Below the pieces are notes generated by a model. The model did no database searches. It saw only the letters and a program-made list of their open reading frames with translations, and was not told where the DNA came from. From Escherichia coli (GTDB lineage: Bacteria; Pseudomonadota; Gammaproteobacteria; Enterobacterales; Enterobacteriaceae), in assembly GCF_030013205.1 (NCBI RefSeq), contig NZ_CP122648.1: DNA of 64,000 nt; one strand, 5' to 3'. Shown piece by piece: positions 10,283 to 31,759 of the stretch; position 1 is the stretch's first letter; each line of letters starts with the position of its first letter. The position numbers were made by a program, and so were the translations under genes.

Positions 10283-10998
10283 TGGGACAGCGCGCGTGAA
10301 CCTCTTTCGCGTGCGCTGTTGATCCACATCCGGCTGCCGTTGAGGGCAATAAAGGTCAGGATGATGTACTCCAGAGACATGGCGTAAACGCCCTGAAGTG
10401 CAAAAATAACGACGCTAATCACGTTAATAATCACCCACAACAGCCAGTTTTCCACATACTTACGCGTCATCAGAATCATTGCCACGATAGATAACACCAT
10501 CATGCATGAATCCCAGAACGGGAAAGCGTCCGGTTGCAGTTCAGGCATCACAACCTGTAATCCTAATGCTTGCATGATCATGACTGCCACGCGGGTCAAA
10601 AATGCAAACACCGGATTGATAAATACCGTCATCAGACCAATCGAAACAACGCAAACCGCCAACCAGCTTAGCGCCTTCGGCAATGGCAACCAGCGAATTT
10701 TCAACTCCGCCTCGTTCTGACTGGTTTGTCGCGACCACGCATACCAACCGTAAATATTCGCGGCAAAGAAAAACACCTGTAATAGCAGGCTGGCATACAG
10801 CTGAATCTGAAAGAAAATAATGCCAAACAAGGTGACGTTGATCAGGCCAAAGAAGTAGTTGCTGATCTTCTCCAGACTGGCAAGGCCAATACACAGCAAC
10901 CCGGCGATCGTGCCTACCGCTTCGATCCATGAGAGATCATAACCGCCTGCTCCTATTGGTATATGTACCAGGATATTCTGCACACTAAAAAAATCCAT
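10279..10998 (-). CDS. pnuC: Nicotinamide riboside transporter PnuC
   Basis: 239-aa membrane-protein ORF immediately downstream of nadA on the same strand; stop codon overlaps the zitB stop (convergent). Confidence 0.9.
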
Positions 10999-11035
10999 CT
11001 TTCCCCCAAAGCGTAACGTTACGCCTTATTATTCG

Positions 11036-12079
11036 TTATCCACGTAGTGTAGCCGCAAAATCCAGCATACGATTGAGCGGCACCAGCGCCCTCTCTCGCA
11101 GCCTTTCATCAACATGAACCTCGTGATTGCTTCCTTCCTGTTCTAATGCCTCTGCGATGGCCTGAAGGCCATTCATGGCCATCCACGGACAATGCGCGCA
11201 GCTGCGGCAGGTTGCACCCTCACTTGCGGTTGGTGCTTCCAGTAACTCTTTATCTGGCACCGCCTGCTGCATTTTGTAGAAAATACCCCGATCGGTTGCC
11301 ACAATAAGCCTCTGATGTGGCAATGTTTTCGCAGCAGCGATCAGTTGACTGGTGGAACCGACCGCATCCGCCATATCGACAATAGCTTGTGGTGATTCTG
11401 GATGCACCAGTATGGCAGCATCCGGGTATTCTTCTTGCAAGCGGGTTAACGCCTGAGTCTTAAATTCATCATGCACAATGCAGGCACCCTGCCAGCATAA
11501 AATGTCTGCGCCCGTCTGTTTTTGCACGTAACGCCCCAGATGTTTGTCGGGAGCCCAGATGATTTTTTCACCCAAACTATCCAGATGATCAATAAGTTCG
11601 ACAGCAATGCTTGAAGTTACCACCCAATCTGCCCGCGCTTTTACCGCAGCAGAAGTGTTGGCGTAGACGACGACAGTATGATCGGGATGGGCATCGCAAA
11701 ATGCGTTAAATTCTTCAACTGGGCAGCCGAGATCCAGTGAACATTCAGCCTGAAGTGTCGGCATCAGAATTGTTTTTTCCGGACTGAGAATTTTGGCGGT
11801 TTCTCCCATAAATCTCACCCCAGCGACTAACAACGTAGAAGCGGGATGCTTTGCACCGAAGCGCGCCATTTCCAGAGAATCAGAAATACAGCCACCGGTT
11901 TCTTCTGCCAGTTGTTGAATTTCGGGATCGGTATAGTAATGGGCAACCATCACCGCATTACGTTCTTTTAGCAGACGTTTTATCTTCTCGCGGTAATACG
12001 CTTTTTCATCAATGCTTAACGGCGTCGGCTTCGGGGGGAAAGGATAAATCGCCGTGTCTGGATCAAACATCACGCTCAT
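11036..12079 (-). CDS. nadA: Quinolinate synthase A
   Basis: 347-aa ORF with conserved Cys residues for the 4Fe-4S cluster; matches NadA. Confidence 0.95.
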
Positions 12080-20579: not shown

Positions 20580-22148
20580 TTAGCGTGCCGGCTGAGTAGT
20601 CGTGGAAGACTGCTCAAAGTGATAGCGACCGGTTTTCAGGCTGCTTGGGCCGAGGCGTGCATACTTGAACATTAAGAACAATTCTGCCACCAGGAACAGG
20701 GTATACAGGCCGCAAATCAGCACCATTGAGAAGATGAGATCGCCTGCGGTCAGTGACGAGTTCGCCACAGCTGTCGGCAGCACTTCACCGATAGCCCACG
20801 GTTGGCGGCCATATTCAGCCACGAACCAGCCCGCTTCTACAGCAATCCACGGCAGCGGAATACCGTACAGCGCGGCGCGCAGCAGCCATTTTTTCTCGCC
20901 AATGCGGTTGCGGATGACACTCCAGAAAGAGAGCGCGATGATTGCCAGCAGCAGGAAGCCACACGCCACCATGATACGGAACGCGAAGTACAGCGGCGCT
21001 ACACGCGGAATGGAGTCTTTGGTTGCCTGTTGAATCTGCGCTTCAGTCGCATCCGCCACGTTTGGCGTATAGCGTTTCAGCAGCAGACCGTAACCGAGGT
21101 CTTTCTTCATGCTATTGAACTGGTCACGAACCGCCTGGTCGGTAGAACCAGAACGCAGTTGTTCGAGCAGAGAGTACGCCTTCATCCCGTTACGAATGCG
21201 TTCTTCATGCTGCACCATCAGCTCTTTCAGGCCGATAACCGGGGTATCCACGGAACGCGTTGCAATGATGCCCAGTGCGTAAGGGATCTGGATTGCAAAT
21301 TTGTTCGTCTCCTCTTCCTGATCAGGAATGCCGAACAGAGTAAAGGCAGCAGGTGCAGGTTGCGTTTCCCACTCGGCTTCAATAGCAGCCAGTTTGGTTT
21401 TCTGCACGTCGCCCATTTCGTAACCAGATTCATCACCCAGAACAATAACAGACAGAACGGCAGCCATACCGAAGCTGGCAGCGATAGCAAAGGAGCGTTT
21501 AGCGAAGGCGAAGTCACGACCTTTCAGCATATACCATGCGCTGATACCGAGGATGAACATCGCGCCAGTCACATAACCAGAGGCTACAGTGTGAACGAAT
21601 TTCACCTGAGCAACCGGGTTAAGCACCAGCTCGGAGAAGCTCACCATCTCCATACGCATAGTTTCAAAGTTGAAATCGGATGCGATTGGGTTTTGCATCC
21701 AGCCGTTCGCAACCAGAATCCACAGTGCGGACAGGTTTGAACCGAGCGCCACCAGCCAGGTGACACACATATGCTGAACTTTACCCAGACGATCCCAACC
21801 GAAGAAGAACAGACCTACAAAGGTGGATTCGAGGAAGAAGGCCATCAGACCTTCGATTGCCAGCGGCGCACCGAAGATATCCCCTACATAGTGGGAATAG
21901 TAAGACCAGTTAGTCCCGAACTGGAACTCCATGGTCAGACCGGTAGCCACACCCAGAGCGAAGTTGATACCAAACAACTTGCCCCAGAACTTGGTCATAT
22001 CTTTATAAATCTGTTTGCCGGAAAGGACGTAGACCGTTTCCATAATGGCCAGCAGGAACGCCATACCGAGCGTCAGTGGCACAAAAAGGAAGTGGTACAT
22101 CGCGGTCAAGGCAAACTGTAAGCGCGACAGTTCGACTATATCTAACAT
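20580..22148 (-). CDS. cydA: Cytochrome bd-I ubiquinol oxidase subunit I
   Basis: ORF 20580..22151 (MMLDIV...); matches CydA, start at the second Met. Confidence 0.95.
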
Positions 22149-22151
22149 CAT

Positions 22152-22950
22152 GACTCCTTGCTCATCGCATGAAGACTCCGAGAGTGAACCCCGTTAGAAA
22201 GGGTCACACGCATGCCCCAATACAAAATTATTTGCTCGCCTCTATCGTTGCCATTTCATCAAAAGAGGAAAAGACAATGATAAAAAAGTTACAAATATGT
22301 TAATGAATAAACCAAATTGATCCCGTAATTATATTACGCCGCAAAATCCTTACAATAAACAGGTTTTTATTGAGCAAATTTGCATTTTTCGACAGTGATC
22401 AATTTATAGCGAAATTGTCACGATCTCACCAATTTGATCTACGACAATTTATCGTGTTTTGCAGATTTTTTTCAAGAATTAAAAATTGATTTATATCAAA
22501 ACCAACCAAATATGTTAATTATGTATAAACCATAGATCATTGGTGATTTTATTGTTAATTTATTGTGAAATATTTATGCAACACAATTATTACAATGAAA
22601 AGGTATAGATAAAAAACCAGTGTTTTATTTAACAGAACCGCCTTATCCACTTTTTATAATACCAATTGATTAGATTAGCCAATTTGTTGCTATTTTACAT
22701 AACATATTTTTATCAAAGTTAATTGATTGTTGCGTTTATGAGCACCGGCCGTAAGCCCGTTATGTTATTGTTTCATTAGTAATAATCACTTAAATGTATC
22801 GATGAAACAGGTATGACTTAGCGGGAGTGATTGTTTCTGAGTGAACAGAGACCACTTTCGCCTGATAAATGAAAAATGAGCGATTTTTGCAAGTTAGTTT
22901 TTCTATAGCCGAGTACGCTCAGCGCCTCGCTTGATTACAATGAGGTTGCT
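22152..22950 (-). promoter_or_regulatory. Long AT-rich cydAB regulatory region
   Basis: About 800 bp AT-rich non-coding DNA upstream of cydA (a 60-bp sample at 22501-22560 has 14/60 G+C); contains FNR-like palindromes. Confidence 0.7.
22486..22499. promoter_or_regulatory. FNR-type binding site (perfect TTGAT-N4-ATCAA)
   Basis: ttgatttatatcaa matches the FNR consensus exactly; a second imperfect site ttgatctacgacaa at 22434-22447 lies 52 bp away. Confidence 0.5.
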
Positions 22951-22953
22951 GCT

Positions 22954-23898
22954 ATGAGTCCTGATAATATCAGTTCTGCTGTCAATCGCTTCTCAGGTTG
23001 GCCATCTAATGATCCTCTAAAAACAGATAAAGAATCAATGACATCACCCATGACTGTGCAGGTAATAAAGATGATTGCCGCCATCCTTGACCCACATCGG
23101 ATAGTCGTTGGAATCGATACACTTTATACAACGCAGCGCGAAACATTTACCTCAGAGAGTCAACAGCTCATTGAATCAGCATTGCAAACACTTCATGTGA
23201 TGAATTTAAATAACCTGGAAACAAATCTCGATGAGGAAGGTCACTATCTGGCTTTTGGATATAACGTTGACACTCCTGACAGAATAACCGTTTCTGCTTA
23301 TAATGAAAAAAAGCCTGGCTGCTATGGCCAATGTCTTTTAATACAGGATGACGAAACAGACTTATTTAACCTGATAAAAGTTAAAATTTTTGAAGCCAGA
23401 CATAATTATGTCGCTCAATTGATGAGCGATCCGGAATTTATGTTCAAATTTAGTTATAGCGCTCAACAAAATAGATTAGAACCTCATCTTCTGGTTCCCA
23501 CTTATTTCCCTCTAAAAACAAACGAACCGGTTACGCAAGAGGATGTACTGTTACTTTATCGTTTCTTTAAAATGGATGGTGATTTTAATATATTAACATC
23601 AGATGAATACATGAGCATCATGACACCTCTGATGAAGTGTGAGCGCAGCATCCACGACCACAACAGGTATGTGACGGGCAAAGATACCCTTCTTCTGGAC
23701 TATCCTCCTTCTGGTAACCAGATATATTTCCATATTTTTCCTGACGAATCAGCAACACTAGTCCTTTATTTTTCAAACAATGACATTGAATGTTTCGTCT
23801 TTGAAAGAGATATTCCGAGCCAGTATCGCTTTTTCAAAATGTTTACCAATCTGGCACTGGTTATTGATCAGTTAACCGATGCCAATCAAATACTTTAA
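22954..23898 (+). CDS. Hypothetical protein (314 aa), low-GC orphan, no recognisable family
   Basis: Uninterrupted ORF with GAGG RBS 8 nt upstream of the ATG; AT-rich codon usage (spot counts 25/60 and 18/60 G+C) unlike neighbouring core genes. Confidence 0.6.
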   Translation: MSPDNISSAVNRFSGWPSNDPLKTDKESMTSPMTVQVIKMIAAILDPHRIVVGIDTLYTTQRETFTSESQQLIESALQTLHVMNLNNLETNLDEEGHYLAFGYNVDTPDRITVSAYNEKKPGCYGQCLLIQDDETDLFNLIKVKIFEARHNYVAQLMSDPEFMFKFSYSAQQNRLEPHLLVPTYFPLKTNEPVTQEDVLLLYRFFKMDGDFNILTSDEYMSIMTPLMKCERSIHDHNRYVTGKDTLLLDYPPSGNQIYFHIFPDESATLVLYFSNNDIECFVFERDIPSQYRFFKMFTNLALVIDQLTDANQIL

Positions 23899-23978
23899 TT
23901 TTTATATATTCCCTGTGGCAAATATTGCTAAACAATGCCCGGGGATTAATTTTTATTACTCACGGAAAGATTTAAATA

Positions 23979-24401
23979 ATGATCCCATCTCAAATCTCTT
24001 TCAACACCCTTCCTGTCAATGCAACATACGCTTCAGAGACAACAGTTGACACACAAAAATTCTCTGACATCCTCTACTCAGCGGGGTGTTCCCTAAAGGA
24101 TCTGGCTTATCTGAGCAGATGTCTGGCATCAATACATCCGACTATCGCCAAAAACATTTATGAAACAGAAAATCTCAGCGATCAAAAATTACTACATATT
24201 GATTGCCGTAGTACAAATGAAATCAAGATAAATATCTTTTTTGGTCAACAACGAGAAGGATTAATTGAAATTAGTTCTGACACAGTCATTTTTTCGATAC
24301 TGTCTTCATTGATTGACTCCACCATTTCTAAATTTCAACACCAAAACCCCGTTAACGGTTCTGTAAATCCTGACCTATTGTATGAGGATTATACTGATTA
24401 A
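23979..24401 (+). CDS. Hypothetical protein (140 aa), low-GC orphan, no recognisable family
   Basis: ORF 80 bp downstream of the 314-aa ORF on the same strand, similar composition; polar Ser/Thr/Ile/Asn/Pro-rich N-terminus. Confidence 0.5.
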   Translation: MIPSQISFNTLPVNATYASETTVDTQKFSDILYSAGCSLKDLAYLSRCLASIHPTIAKNIYETENLSDQKLLHIDCRSTNEIKINIFFGQQREGLIEISSDTVIFSILSSLIDSTISKFQHQNPVNGSVNPDLLYEDYTD

Positions 24402-24948
24402 ATCCCTCCTGTCGCGAAAAATGGCCTGCGTTATTGCCAGACGTAATAAAACTTTTGATTAACGTTTCTCGTACTGGTAGCACCTTCATGTACTTTTCTT
24501 TTTTACGAAAAATCAAAAGAGCTAACAAAGGTCATAATTCGCATGAATCATTAATTATTTGTTATTTTCAACATTATTTTTACATTAAGCAGAGATGAAT
24601 TGCTGTGAAATTCGACTTAACTTTTATGAAATGCATTTACTCATGGCTAAAGCCACGTCACAAAAATGCAAATTAGAAGTTGATCACAATTATCTCAATA
24701 CATCAAATCAAGTTAATTTTAAAAATTTAACATTCATGACATCAGTTGACATAACACACTGAATTAAAATGAGAATTTGAAAACACACTTTAAACAATCA
24801 TTTCCCGAAAGACATTTTGAAAATAGATCAATTGCAACATTACGGTCAGATAAAGACACTCCTGTGATATTAAACCTGTGCCGTTATGAACGGCCATAAA
24901 TACGACGTGTGTAACTTATTTTACTCTCTGTCTTACAAAGGATTACCC
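24402..24948 (+). promoter_or_regulatory. AT-rich leader / probable promoter region of the glutamate mutase operon
   Basis: 547 bp of AT-rich non-coding DNA directly upstream of the first operon gene; no ORF of 60 aa or more. Confidence 0.4.
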
Positions 24949-25398
24949 ATGAAGAAAGCAACACTTGTGATTGGCGTTATTGGCGCGGACTGCCATGCAG
25001 TAGGCAATAAAGTTCTGGACCGCGTTTTTAGCAACCATGGCTTCAGAGTCATTAATCTGGGCGTAATGGTCAGCCAGGACGAATATATTGATGCGGCCAT
25101 TGAAACTGGCGCTGACGCGATTGTCGTCTCCTCTATCTATGGGCATGGCGATATCGATTGTCTGGGCATGCGCGAACGCTGCATTGAGCGTGGGCTGGGT
25201 AACATCCTGCTCTATGTGGGCGGTAACCTGGTGGTCGGAAAACATGACTTCGCTGACGTGGAAACCAAGTTCAAAGAGATGGGATTTGATCGCGTCTTTT
25301 CCCCAAGTCATGACTTAGAAGATGTTTGTCAGCTGATGGCCCACGATATCAACCAACGTCATGACGTTGATACTCGCATTCTTGAAGAGGCAATCTGA
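24949..25398 (+). CDS. Glutamate mutase sigma (S) subunit, B12-binding (methylaspartate mutase small subunit)
   Basis: Start chosen at [21 protein letters not shown] (AAGGA RBS upstream); DxHxxG cobalamin-binding motif; aligns by eye with recalled Clostridium GlmS/MutS. Confidence 0.85.
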
Positions 25399-26804: not shown

Positions 26805-28250
26805 ATGGAACTTCGAAATAAGAAATTAACCCATGACGAATTCATGACCGAGCGGCAACAGGTACTGAAAACCTGGGAAACCGGCAAGGATGTTGAAAAC
26901 TTTGAAGATGGCGTTAAATACCAACAAACCATCCCTGAGCATAAACGCTTCTCTCTTGCGCTGCTGAAAGCAGACAAGGAAGGTAAAACCCTTAGCCAAC
27001 CGCGCGCAGGTGTGGCGCTGATGGACGAACACATCGAACTACTGAAAACACTACAAGAAGAGTGCGATCTGCTGCCGAGCACTATCGATGCATATACCCG
27101 TCTGAATCGGTACGAAGAAGCGGCTGTAGGGATTAAAAAATCCATCGAAGCCGGAACCTCTAAACTGAACGGTTTGCCGGTAGTTAACCATGGCGTCGCA
27201 GCTTGCCGTCGCCTCACCGAAGCCCTGCAAAAACCGCTACAGATCCGCCACGGCACGCCAGATGCGCGTCTGCTGGCTGAAATCTCGATGTCCAGCGGCT
27301 TTACCAGTTACGAAGGCGGCGGCATTTCCTACAACATTCCGTATGCCAAACGCGTAACGCTGGAAAAATCGATCCGCGACTGGCAGTACTGCGACCGTTT
27401 AATGGGGATGTATGAAGAACACGGGATCCGCATCAACCGCGAACCGTTTGGCCCACTAACGGGTACGCTGATCCCGCCGTTTATCTCGCACTCTATCGCG
27501 ATCATCGAAGGCTTGCTGGCGCTGGAACAGGGTGTGAAATCTATCACCGTTGGTTATGGACAGGTCGGCAGCCTGACGCAGGATGTTGCGGCGATCCAGT
27601 CTCTGCGTGAACTTGCACACGAATATTTTCAGAGCTATGGCTATACCGACTATGAATTAAGTACCGTGTTTCACCAGTGGATGGGCGGCTTTCCGGAAGA
27701 CGAATCGAAAGCGTTCGCTATTATCTCCTGGGGCGCAGCCGTCGCGGGGATGTCTGGTGCCACCAAAGTCATCACCAAAAGTCCGCACGAAGCCTGGGGT
27801 ATCCCGACTGCCGCTGCCAACATTCAGGGGCTGAAAGCCTCCCGCCAGATGCTCAACATGGTCAACGAGCAGAAATTCCCGCCGTGCCCTGCGGTTGAAC
27901 TGGAAATTGAACTGATTAAGAGCGAGGTTCGCGCAGTACTGAATAAAGTGTTCGAACTGGGTAATGGTGATATTGCGCGCGGTACGGTGCTGGCATTTGA
28001 AGCGGGCGTACTGGATGTGCCGTTTGCACCAGCCGCGTGTAACGCGGGCAAAATTCTTCCGGTCCGTGACAACACCGGCGCGATACGCGTACTGGAAGCC
28101 GGAGCCGTTCCATTGCCAAAAGATATTCTCGACCTCCACCACGATTACGTTGCTGAACGCGCACGCTTTGAAGGACGCCAACCGACATTCCAGATGGTTG
28201 TAGATGACATCAATGCTGTATCCCACAGTAAATTAATAGGAAGACCATAA
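26805..28250 (+). CDS. Glutamate mutase epsilon (E) subunit (methylaspartate mutase large subunit)
   Basis: 481-aa ORF, size and position consistent with GlmE/MutE; TIM-barrel-type sequence. Confidence 0.8.
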   Translation: MELRNKKLTHDEFMTERQQVLKTWETGKDVENFEDGVKYQQTIPEHKRFSLALLKADKEGKTLSQPRAGVALMDEHIELLKTLQEECDLLPSTIDAYTRLNRYEEAAVGIKKSIEAGTSKLNGLPVVNHGVAACRRLTEALQKPLQIRHGTPDARLLAEISMSSGFTSYEGGGISYNIPYAKRVTLEKSIRDWQYCDRLMGMYEEHGIRINREPFGPLTGTLIPPFISHSIAIIEGLLALEQGVKSITVGYGQVGSLTQDVAAIQSLRELAHEYFQSYGYTDYELSTVFHQWMGGFPEDESKAFAIISWGAAVAGMSGATKVITKSPHEAWGIPTAAANIQGLKASRQMLNMVNEQKFPPCPAVELEIELIKSEVRAVLNKVFELGNGDIARGTVLAFEAGVLDVPFAPAACNAGKILPVRDNTGAIRVLEAGAVPLPKDILDLHHDYVAERARFEGRQPTFQMVVDDINAVSHSKLIGRP

Positions 28251-29491
28251 TGAAAATAAAACAGGCCCTGTTCACCGCTGGCTACTCCTCATTCTATTTC
28301 GATGACCAGCAGGCGATAAAAAACGGAGCGGGTCATGACGGCTTTTTTTATACCGGGGAGCCAGTAACACAGGGGTTTAACGCCGTACGTCAGGCCGGGG
28401 AGTGCGTATCGGTACAGTTGATTCTGGAAAACGGCGCGGTCGCCGTAGGTGACTGTGCTGCCGTACAGTATTCCGGGGCAGGTGGTCGCGATCCACTGTT
28501 CCTCGCGGAGCACTTTATTCCGTTCCTCAACGACCATATCAAGCCATTACTGGTAGGCCGCGATGTGGATACTTTCCTGCCGAATGCCCGTTTCTTCGAC
28601 AAATTGCGTATTGACGGCAACTTGCTGCATACCGCCGTGCGCTACGGATTATCACAGGCGCTGCTTGATGCTACCGCGCTGGCAACCGGCCGTCTGAAAA
28701 CTGAAGTGGTCTGTGATGAATGGCAGTTGCCACGCGTGGCGGAATCCATTCCATTATTTGGTCAGAGCGGCGACGATCGATATATCGCCGTCGATAAGAT
28801 GATCCTTAAGGGCATCGACGTGCTGCCCCATGCACTGATTAATAACGTCGAAGAGAAACTGGGCTTTAAAGGTGAAAAACTGCGCGAATATGTCCGCTGG
28901 CTGTCGGATCGTATTCTGAGCAAGCGCACCAGCGCACGCTACCACCCTACCCTGCACATCGATGTATACGGCACTATCGGTCTGATCTTCGATATGGATC
29001 CGCTTCGCTGTGCGCAATACATCGCCAGCCTGGAAAAAGAAGCGCAAGGCCTGCCGCTCTACATTGAAGGTCCGGTCGATGCCGGTAACAAGCCCGATCA
29101 AATTCGCCTGCTGACCGCGATTACCAAAGAGCTGACGCGCCTCGGTTCCGGCGTGAAACTAGTGGCCGATGAATGGTGTAACACCTACCAGGATATTGTT
29201 GATTTCACCGATGCCGCCAGTTGCCACATGGTGCAAATCAAAACCCCGGATCTGGGCAGTATTCACAACATCGTCAATGCAGTTCTTTATTGCAACAGCC
29301 ACAGCATGGAAGCGTACCAGGGCGGCACCTGCAATGAAACTGATGTCAGTGCCCGCACCTGTGTCCACGTCGCCCTTGCCGCTCGCCCCATGCGTATGCT
29401 GGTAAAACCAGGGATGGGCTTTGACGAAGGCCTCGATATCGTCTTCAACGAAATGAATCGTACTATCGCGCTGTTGCAGGCTAAGGATTAA
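28250..29491 (+). CDS. 3-Methylaspartate ammonia-lyase
   Basis: 413-aa ORF (enolase superfamily size), immediately downstream of and overlapping the E subunit gene (TAATG). Confidence 0.8.
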   Translation: MKIKQALFTAGYSSFYFDDQQAIKNGAGHDGFFYTGEPVTQGFNAVRQAGECVSVQLILENGAVAVGDCAAVQYSGAGGRDPLFLAEHFIPFLNDHIKPLLVGRDVDTFLPNARFFDKLRIDGNLLHTAVRYGLSQALLDATALATGRLKTEVVCDEWQLPRVAESIPLFGQSGDDRYIAVDKMILKGIDVLPHALINNVEEKLGFKGEKLREYVRWLSDRILSKRTSARYHPTLHIDVYGTIGLIFDMDPLRCAQYIASLEKEAQGLPLYIEGPVDAGNKPDQIRLLTAITKELTRLGSGVKLVADEWCNTYQDIVDFTDAASCHMVQIKTPDLGSIHNIVNAVLYCNSHSMEAYQGGTCNETDVSARTCVHVALAARPMRMLVKPGMGFDEGLDIVFNEMNRTIALLQAKD

Positions 29492-30865: not shown

Positions 30866-31061
30866 AACAGTCAATTGTCTCACTGGCGCAAGTCATTCGT
30901 TCGAAAAATGCCGGACCTTACGAACTGGTTTTAGATATTTTATTTAAAACCAAAGAAAACTATGAGCGAGTCAAATCATCAGGGCAATTAACCCCAGAAC
31001 TGATTGGGTGATGCTGCCAACTTACTGATTTAGTGTATGATGGTGTTTTTGAGGTGCTCCA

Positions 31062-31337
31062 GTGGCTTCTGTTTCTATCAGCTGTCCCTCCTGTTCAGCT
31101 ACTGACGGGGTGGTGCGTAACGGCAAAAGCACCGCCGGACATCAGCGCTATCTCTGCTCTCACTGCCGTAAAACATGGCAACTACAGTTCACTTACGCCG
31201 CCTCTCAGCCCGGTACGCACCAGAAAATCATTGATATGGCCATGAATGGCGTCGGATGTCGCGCCAGTGCACGCATTATTGGCGTTGGCCTCAACACGAT
31301 TTTCCGCCACTTAAAAAACTCAGGCCGCAGTCGGTAA
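31062..31337 (+). CDS. insA: IS1 protein InsA
   Basis: 91-aa ORF with zinc-finger Cys residues (CPSCSA...CSHC). Confidence 0.9.
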
Positions 31338-31759
31338 CCTCGCGCATACAACCGGGCAGTGATGTGATTGTCTGCGCTGAAATGGACGAACAGTGGGGCT
31401 ACGTCGGTGCTAAATCACGTCAGCGCTGGCTGTTTTACGCGTATGACAGGATGCGGAGGACGGTTGTGGCGCACGTCTTCGGTGAACGCACTCTGGCCAC
31501 ACTGGAGCGTCTTCTGAGCCTGCTGTCGGCCTTTGAGGTCGTGGTATGGATGACGGATGGCTGGCCGCTGTATGAATCACGCCTGAAGGGAAAGCTGCAC
31601 GTTATCAGCAAGCGTTATACTCAGCGCATTGAGCGGCATAACCTGAATCTGAGACAACATCTGGCAAGGCTGGGACGGAAGTCACTGTCGTTCTCAAAAT
31701 CGGTGGAGCTGCATGACAAGGTCATCGGGCATTATCTGAACATAAAACACTATCAGTAA
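31256..31759 (+). CDS. insB: IS1 InsB frame (expressed as InsAB' transposase by -1 frameshift)
   Basis: 167-aa ORF in the -1 frame relative to insA; slippery A-run (ttaaaaaactc) at about 31311-31321. Confidence 0.9.

Follow-up and report, generated by a model that had tools for sequence, protein, structure and literature searches.

The cydAB operon is a model of oxygen-graded gene control and, to our knowledge, all dissection of its promoter has been carried out on the allele of E. coli K-12. In the window, i.e., the whole 64,000-nucleotide stretch of E. coli DNA that was analysed, cydA occupies positions 20580-22148 on the minus strand. The coding sequence is supported both by the list of open reading frames and by the annotation of the identical region in strain 118UI; its RefSeq-style start is 22148, and the reading frame itself extends to 22151, where there is another in-frame ATG. 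As the first-pass annotation had noted, an orphan reading frame with its ATG at 22954 is divergent from cydA; it is a 314-aa gene on the plus strand (orph1, 22954-23898). The same annotation had described the intervening DNA as the cydAB regulatory region, retained next to an accessory segment that begins immediately beyond it.

The comparison with K-12 contradicts the latter description. Identity is 99.0% in the cydA coding sequence and 97.5% at positions -80 to -1 relative to cydA, and it is 73.9% at positions -373 to -81, i.e., the region does not share the identity of the surrounding core genome as represented by cydA. Beyond -373 (window position ~22524), the identity of about 50% is at the level of noise and a BLAST search against K-12 yields no similarity, while an alignment aided by outgroup sequences can be carried to about -420. 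Divergence begins approximately 80 bp upstream of cydA (~22228), with a sharp edge located in or downstream of the cydA leader. Only the last ~80 bp are K-12-like, and the promoter region is not retained from K-12 but is an allele diverged by 26%. The first-pass annotation had itself taken a junction inside the cydA promoter as evidence against its reading, and since only positions -80 to -1 are K-12-like, the junction literally falls there.

The difference is not a peculiarity of one strain. Of 5,425 complete E. coli genomes searched, 3,177 matched the K-12 region at 99% identity or more and only four at 90-99%; together they form the K-12 type (3,181 genomes; ~59%). In 2,244 genomes (~41%), the match was at most 90% and confined to the proximal part; these are of the window type. 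A reciprocal search with the window region agrees with this split. Two discrete alleles of the cydA upstream region segregate within the species. Among the carriers of the window type are O157:H7, Ecol_867, and A26, and the 802 bp at 22152-22953 are 100% identical to strain 118UI and 99.3% identical to an O157:H7 strain.

To see which elements of the region are conserved, we used a footprinting alignment of 430 bp upstream of cydA in 23 sequences from about 15 genera, namely, the two E. coli alleles together with Citrobacter, Klebsiella, Enterobacter, Raoultella, Kluyvera, Kosakonia, and others. Both FNR-type sites reported in the first pass are present. The FNR-2 box TTGATTTATATCAA (22486-22499, no strand assigned) is a perfect TTGAT-N4-ATCAA palindrome and the only one in the 64 kb (0.09 expected by chance; at least one in 9 of 100 shuffles). 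The imperfect FNR-1 box TTGATCTACGACAA (22434-22447, no strand assigned; TTGTCGTAGATCAA on the cydA strand) contains two mismatches, both within one half-site, and its center is 52 bp away from that of FNR-2. Matches with two mismatches are common (48 in the window versus ~35 expected); hence the FNR-1 box carries no weight when taken alone, and its weight comes from homology and conservation. In the pairwise alignment with K-12, the boxes fall on the K-12 FNR sites and not elsewhere: FNR-2 aligns column for column with TTGATATTTATCAA (K-12 positions 771110-771123) and FNR-1 with TTGTTCTCGATCAA (771162-771175), the K-12 boxes being likewise 52 bp apart. The proposed dual-FNR architecture of cydAB is in place here, with both boxes homologous to their K-12 counterparts and the spacing kept.

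The FNR-2 column contains a perfect TTGAT-N4-ATCAA in 19 of the 23 enterobacterial sequences. In FNR-1, TTG and ATCAA are invariant in all 23 sequences and the six bases between them vary freely; such invariant half-sites around a free spacer are the pattern expected of a real operator. The FNR-1 box has two mismatches in the window allele versus one in K-12, and repression could be weaker as a result. A third element, TTGATCACTGTCGA on the cydA strand (22389-22402, listed on the plus strand), is also a two-mismatch FNR match of the form TTGATC...TCGA, with TTGATC invariant in 23 of 23 sequences; it looks like an FNR half-site or a site of another factor. FNR-1 lies 45 bp upstream of it, and the start of the second promoter, described below, ~72 bp downstream.

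The promoter scan identified a P1-type sigma-70 promoter, TTGAAA-18-TAAATT (22446-22475, minus strand), which sits between the two FNR boxes; its hexamers are homologous to TTGGAA-18-TAAATT of K-12, and the -10 region is conserved in the 23-sequence alignment. The second K-12 FNR site is reportedly at -1.5, according to the 1997 work of Cotter et al. The cydAB FNR site at -53.5 is documented in K-12, where the operon is classed as directly repressed by FNR (Myers et al., PMC3688515). This site places the K-12 P1 start at 771170, with the second box across the start, and the same reasoning (PMC3688515) puts the probable P1 start of the window at ~22439, overlapped by FNR-1. Closer to cydA, there is a second sigma-70 promoter, TTGTAA-16-TATAAT (22328-22355, minus strand), with 10 of 12 hexamer matches and a start equivalent to ~22324. 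Its TTGTAA is conserved in 21 of 23 sequences, and the homologous K-12 promoter coincides with a transcription start that was mapped 172 nt before cydA (Kim et al., PMC3415461 supplement). The -10 hexamer is TATAAT in the window versus the weaker TATATA in K-12 (771251-771278); TATAAT is also seen in several other genera (Citrobacter, K. oxytoca, Trabulsiella).

The last K-12-like stretch is the cydA leader (-80 to -1; 22149-22228, minus strand). At 97.5% identity to K-12, it is nearly invariant in the 23 sequences from ~15 genera, and a consensus hairpin is predicted for it by RNAalifold, in which some of the pairs covary (GUG..CAC, AUG..CAU, UUG..CAA). The leader matched no family in an Rfam scan of 22000-25000, in which the sole match was a chance microRNA (E = 0.97). 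This conserved stretch with its predicted stem-loop may be an undescribed leader element.

Three ArcA ChIP-seq regions (cydA1-3) with published boxes are known upstream of K-12 cydA (Park et al., PMC3798270). Two of the three (PMC3798270) lie upstream of -373, outside the BLAST similarity between the alleles. We scanned both alleles with a position weight matrix built from the boxes in Table S3 of PMC3798270. The proximal predicted box of the window (22286-22303, plus strand; 20.5 bits) is conserved in the 23 sequences and is the positional equivalent of cydA3, where the K-12 box, at the same distance from cydA, scores 15.3 bits. A predicted array (22512-22595, plus strand), with boxes at 22512 (16.2 bits), 22541 (14.5), 22552 (20.5), and 22578 (13.9), is the positional equivalent of cydA2; the BLAST similarity to K-12 stops inside this array (~22524), and its TTAACA repeats are conserved across genera. 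Finally, a pair of predicted distal boxes (22699-22733, no strand assigned) at 22699 (17.3 bits) and 22716 (14.0 bits) is tentatively equated with cydA1 by its similar distance from cydA. This block is invariant among the window, locus L086, and L085 (the divergent lineage) in spite of its diverging flanks; both boxes recur at these distances in strain A26, the 14.0-bit box with two base changes (12.1 bits).

Counted to the first ATG of the reading frame at 22151 (the annotated start at 22148 adds 3 bp), the proximal box is located at -143 in K-12 and in the window, the array boxes at -378, -398, and -409 versus -369, -398, and -409, and the distal boxes at -581 and -626 versus -556 and -573, i.e., the proximal three match within a few bp and the distal pair is ~25-50 bp off. 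Proximal scores of the window compared to K-12 are 20.5 versus 15.3 and 20.5 versus 13.0 bits. With equivalent ArcA boxes at the same distances in both alleles, the regulatory logic seems to be preserved. When the K-12 cydA boxes were left out of the matrix, the 802 bp contained four boxes of at least 15 bits versus 0.08 expected, a count reached in none of 1,000 dinucleotide shuffles; the neighboring 1.9 kb, equally AT-rich, contain one such box. The GC content of 22200-22599 is 29%, and AT-rich DNA of such composition is the kind silenced by H-NS. H-NS was reported for the K-12 cydA spacer (PMC3798270; PMC3946193), and in K-12, ArcA activates by countering H-NS whereas FNR represses (PMC3798270; PMC3688515; PMC3998891; PMC3946193).

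On the far side of the spacer, gene content is variable. In the annotated twin, strain 118UI, gal and tol-pal are followed by ybgC-ybgE-cydX-cydB-cydA on the minus strand. Past the spacer, the plus strand carries two hypothetical genes, glmS, glmL, glmE, mal, an AtuA-family gene, a DUF4387 gene, and a transporter gene, and then genes for a class I fumarase (fumD), cobO, and a LysR regulator, up to sucD. This methylaspartate cluster, present in 1,122 complete E. coli genomes (~21%), sits where K-12 has mngRAB. The contents of the sucD-cydA interval vary (nothing, mngRAB, or the methylaspartate cluster), making it a multi-genus hotspot. Among the loci listed (L005-L084), the interval is empty in most species. 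Again among the loci listed, mngRAB occupies it in E. cloacae, Lelliottia, Kluyvera, and C. freundii, the methylaspartate cluster in C. werkmanii, K. oxytoca, K. spallanzanii, and P. vulneris, and the inserts always share one orientation. In ~1,100 E. coli genomes, a gene for a tetratricopeptide-repeat (TPR) protein replaces orph1 or the island upstream of cydA (10326-11441 of locus L003, 10540-11733 of L004); among the loci listed, a 65%-identical copy occupies the same place in Enterobacter sp. BIGb0383 (L032). The window itself contains a copy of IS1 (31005-31775) with an exact terminal repeat GGTGATGCTGCCAACTTACTGAT (31007-31029). Strain 118UI lacks this 770-bp insertion, which seems to break up the DUF4387 gene, beside the AtuA-family gene.

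Where the accessory segment starts depends on the strain used for comparison, and it is not directly beyond the regulatory region (~22950), as had been assumed: the edge lies at ~22228 relative to K-12 and at ~22789 relative to E. coli with the TPR gene (A26, Ecol_867), at which point homology to these strains ends. The following orph1-linked 5' region (22790-22953, plus strand) is absent from the TPR-gene strains, and its last ~100 bp are conserved. With L085, a contig of a more distantly related Escherichia lineage, the window can be aligned across orph1 as far as 24004 and again from 37271, on the sucD side. The orphans are missing in Citrobacter, Klebsiella oxytoca, and Pseudescherichia, where the methylaspartate cluster lies immediately next to cydA. 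Strain CFSAN018748 (swine) matches both orph1 (in the stretch 22954-24401) and mal (28250-29491) at 100% identity, but mal reaches only 98.2% with 118UI, so the best matches of the cydA side and of the island side differ.

The orphans deserve separate mention. Neither orph1 nor orph2 (140 aa; 23979-24401, plus strand, between orph1 and glmS) matched a Pfam or NCBIfam family. The orph1 gene is known from Escherichia only: beyond close Escherichia copies, a word-indexed search of 5.8 billion clusters found none, and an exhaustive HMMER search over 1.84 billion representatives retrieved only near-identical proteins or fragments. Its AlphaFold2 model, based on a four-sequence alignment, has a mean pLDDT of 47 and is too poor to use. 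Its length is constant at 314 aa and its dN/dS is 0.34-0.42 at dS up to 0.52, which points to a real gene under moderate constraint. It occurs in 1,135 of 5,426 E. coli genomes, and within this species it co-occurs with the methylaspartate cluster (1,135 versus 1,122 genomes). In L085, an orph1 with 65% amino-acid identity is divergent from cydA across an 804-bp spacer; between it and sucD there is an unrelated gene of 258 aa. Judged by these genomes, orph1 is an older neighbor of cydA in Escherichia. The dN/dS of orph2 is 0.29 relative to L086, and orph2 is absent from L085. The literature searched contained no mention of the orphan genes under their O157 Sakai locus tags.

As for expression of orph1, the promoter scan detected no sigma-70-like promoter on that strand at its threshold, and a looser scan gave only 8-of-12 matches, far from the ATG. 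The sequence TGAGCG-N4-TTGCA was considered as a sigma-54 element and rejected by eye, the GG being missing and the spacing wrong. The last ~100 bp before the ATG are better conserved than orph1 itself in comparisons with L085 and L086, and the invariant distal ArcA block is located 221-255 bp upstream of the gene. Given these two conserved segments, it is possible that orph1 shares oxygen control.

Which of the two alleles is the older one? Besides the island, the window type occurs in three other gene neighborhoods, namely, sucD-TPR gene-cydA (A26), mngRAB-TPR gene-cydA (Ecol_867), and one with a TPR remnant (E69), in all of which homology to the window extends to ~22789. The L085 contig, obtained through an exact-protein look-up, lacks the methylaspartate genes; its cydA is 94.4% identical to that of the window, and in the promoter segment, identity is 93.9% to the window but only 74.8% to K-12. 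Citrobacter shares 84% identity with the window type and 80% with the K-12 type. Further, K-12 and Ecol_867 are 96-99% identical near sucD, dropping to 83% at the 3' end of mngB beside the junction, and their MngB proteins are 91% identical; this divergence in mngRAB points to a recombination tract extending over the cydA promoter as well. From the varied neighborhoods, L085, Citrobacter, and the drop in mngB, the window allele appears to be the orthologous, ancestral one and the K-12 allele the replacement, a polarity that rests mainly on one outgroup contig, L085. The K-12 allele was most likely brought in by recombination, in which case the imported tract would extend from within mngB to a point at or just downstream of -80 of cydA. 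A CydA search of genome contigs provided cydA loci from at least 80 species, with one E. coli and many other genera; among the matches listed, there were none from Salmonella, E. albertii, or E. fergusonii, and none of the 80 outgroup loci qualified as a donor of the K-12 allele.

Replacement of the promoter in the K-12 lineage has to be weighed against other histories. Had the K-12 region been retained intact, with an island of the orphans and the methylaspartate cluster beginning at ~22950, the homology of the FNR boxes and P1 to K-12 would follow directly, and so would the co-occurrence of orph1 with the cluster in ~21% of E. coli genomes. This history is quite improbable, as K-12-like sequence is confined to -80 to -1, with 74% identity or no alignment elsewhere, homology to other E. 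coli stops at ~22789, and the orph1 of L085 adjoins cydA without the cluster. A reversed polarity, in which K-12 has the native promoter and that of the window was acquired, along with the methylaspartate island, from a donor resembling Citrobacter or Klebsiella, also appears unlikely. The glm-mal cluster is indeed found divergent beside cydA in C. werkmanii, two Citrobacter sp., and K. oxytoca, with the same placement in K. spallanzanii, P. vulneris, and Escherichia sp. ESNIH1, and Citrobacter is nearer to the window allele (84%) than to that of K-12 (80%). However, a recent import would show much more than 84% identity, window-type alleles occur in island-free E. coli (A26, Ecol_867, E69), an island-free divergent Escherichia lineage has the allele at exactly the divergence of its cydA, and it is the K-12 allele that is about equally distant from everything (74-80%).

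Divergence of the alleles might also have arisen in situ, without recombination, if selection on the promoter was relaxed or positive; conserved sites and free spacers are what is seen in regulatory DNA under stabilizing selection. We find this very hard to accept in view of 26% divergence beside a 99%-identical gene with a sharp edge between them, the near lack of intermediates among 5,425 genomes, and the unusual divergence of the adjacent mngB (down to 83%). A further explanation, namely, that motifs resembling FNR and ArcA sites arose by chance because the DNA is AT-rich, may be suggested by the 29% GC content, the abundance of two-mismatch FNR matches, and the perfect FNR box found in 9 of 100 shuffles. 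It is scarcely credible: the same columns are conserved across 23 sequences and are homologous to experimentally supported K-12 sites, the number of ArcA boxes was reached in 0 of 1,000 shuffles, and the neighboring AT-rich 1.9 kb have only one box of at least 15 bits.

We consider it probable that segment 22149-22953, with its two FNR boxes, P1, the second promoter, and three predicted ArcA regions, is a working cydAB oxygen-control region that has the K-12 architecture and represents the ancestral Escherichia allele, the K-12 allele being the imported one. Protein binding and the regulatory outcome in this strain most likely follow the logic established in K-12. The AT-rich region (29% GC) would be silenced by H-NS. 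At low oxygen, ArcA-P would bind the direct-repeat arrays at about -146, -372 to -412, and -556 to -576 and relieve the silencing, so that transcription from P1 (~22439) and from the promoter starting near 22324 would rise. In anoxia, FNR dimers on FNR-2 and on FNR-1, which overlaps the P1 start, would repress P1. As a net outcome, synthesis of cytochrome bd-I would peak at low oxygen. The predicted binding sites keep their positions in both alleles, and it is the intervening DNA that has diverged.

The preserved architecture leaves room for quantitative differences. Higher proximal ArcA scores, the consensus -10 hexamer of the second promoter, and the weaker FNR-1 box would together give the window type more bd-I than the K-12 type under low oxygen and anoxia. 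We put forward as a tentative and rather doubtful proposal that the two alleles set different oxygen response curves for bd-I and that orph1 may share the distal ArcA site with cydA. If true, the textbook K-12 promoter model misstates respiratory regulation in ~41% of E. coli, and there is a possible difference between lineages in low-oxygen respiration. In about four in ten complete E. coli genomes, O157:H7 included, the promoter region is 26% different from that of K-12 or cannot be aligned with it. The FNR and ArcA sites kept in both alleles provide a natural experiment on how much of a complex promoter is constrained. For annotation, the start of the accessory segment is corrected, and the first orphan becomes an old neighbor of cydA.

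The cydAB control region of the window is a known system in a little-noted allelic form. The K-12 region, reportedly dissected by Cotter et al. in 1997 and Govantes et al. in 2000, is said to combine P1, further promoters P2-P5, FNR sites at -53.5 and -1.5, and activation by ArcA-P against H-NS. The window shares with it the FNR pair 52 bp apart, the P1 hexamers, the second promoter, the ArcA distances, the AT-rich composition, and the last 80 nt of the leader (97.5% identical). It differs in having 74% identity at -81 to -373 and no BLAST similarity further upstream, and its upstream neighbor is orph1, in contrast to mngB with a REP element in K-12. No description of a two-allele form of cydAB was found in the literature.

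The accessory segment is the methylaspartate (glutamate fermentation) cluster with fumD described in E. coli O157:H7 (Kronen and Berg 2015, PMC4682846), with which it shares glmS, glmL, glmE, mal, the AtuA-family, DUF4387, and transporter genes, as well as fumD, cobO, and the LysR regulator. That paper (PMC4682846) reports 26.5% for the cluster, compared to ~21% of complete E. coli genomes here, and its figure legend lists neither the two orphan genes nor the link to cydA. In the window, the orphans stand between the cluster and cydA, whereas in other genera the cluster abuts cydA directly.

The closest general parallel is horizontal regulatory switching, reportedly described by Oren et al. 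in 2014, i.e., switched intergenic regions. Such regions are also treated in the Piggy paper (Thorpe et al. 2018, PMC5890482), in the searched text of which we found no mention of cydA. We regarded a region as switched if at least two alleles below 90% identity and without intermediates lie upstream of the same core gene. The cydA region resembles these cases in its two divergent upstream alleles, the sharp drop at the gene edge, and the bimodal distribution, with 3,177 genomes at 99% identity or more, 2,244 at 90% or less, and only four between. The gene pair is not constant, since the upstream neighbor is mngB in K-12, orph1 in the window, and the TPR gene in A26 and Ecol_867; because the upstream gene differs, the case fits the "upstream" definition of Piggy and not the stricter "gene-pair" one. 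As the binding-site architecture is kept in both alleles, this switch may be of quantitative rather than qualitative importance.
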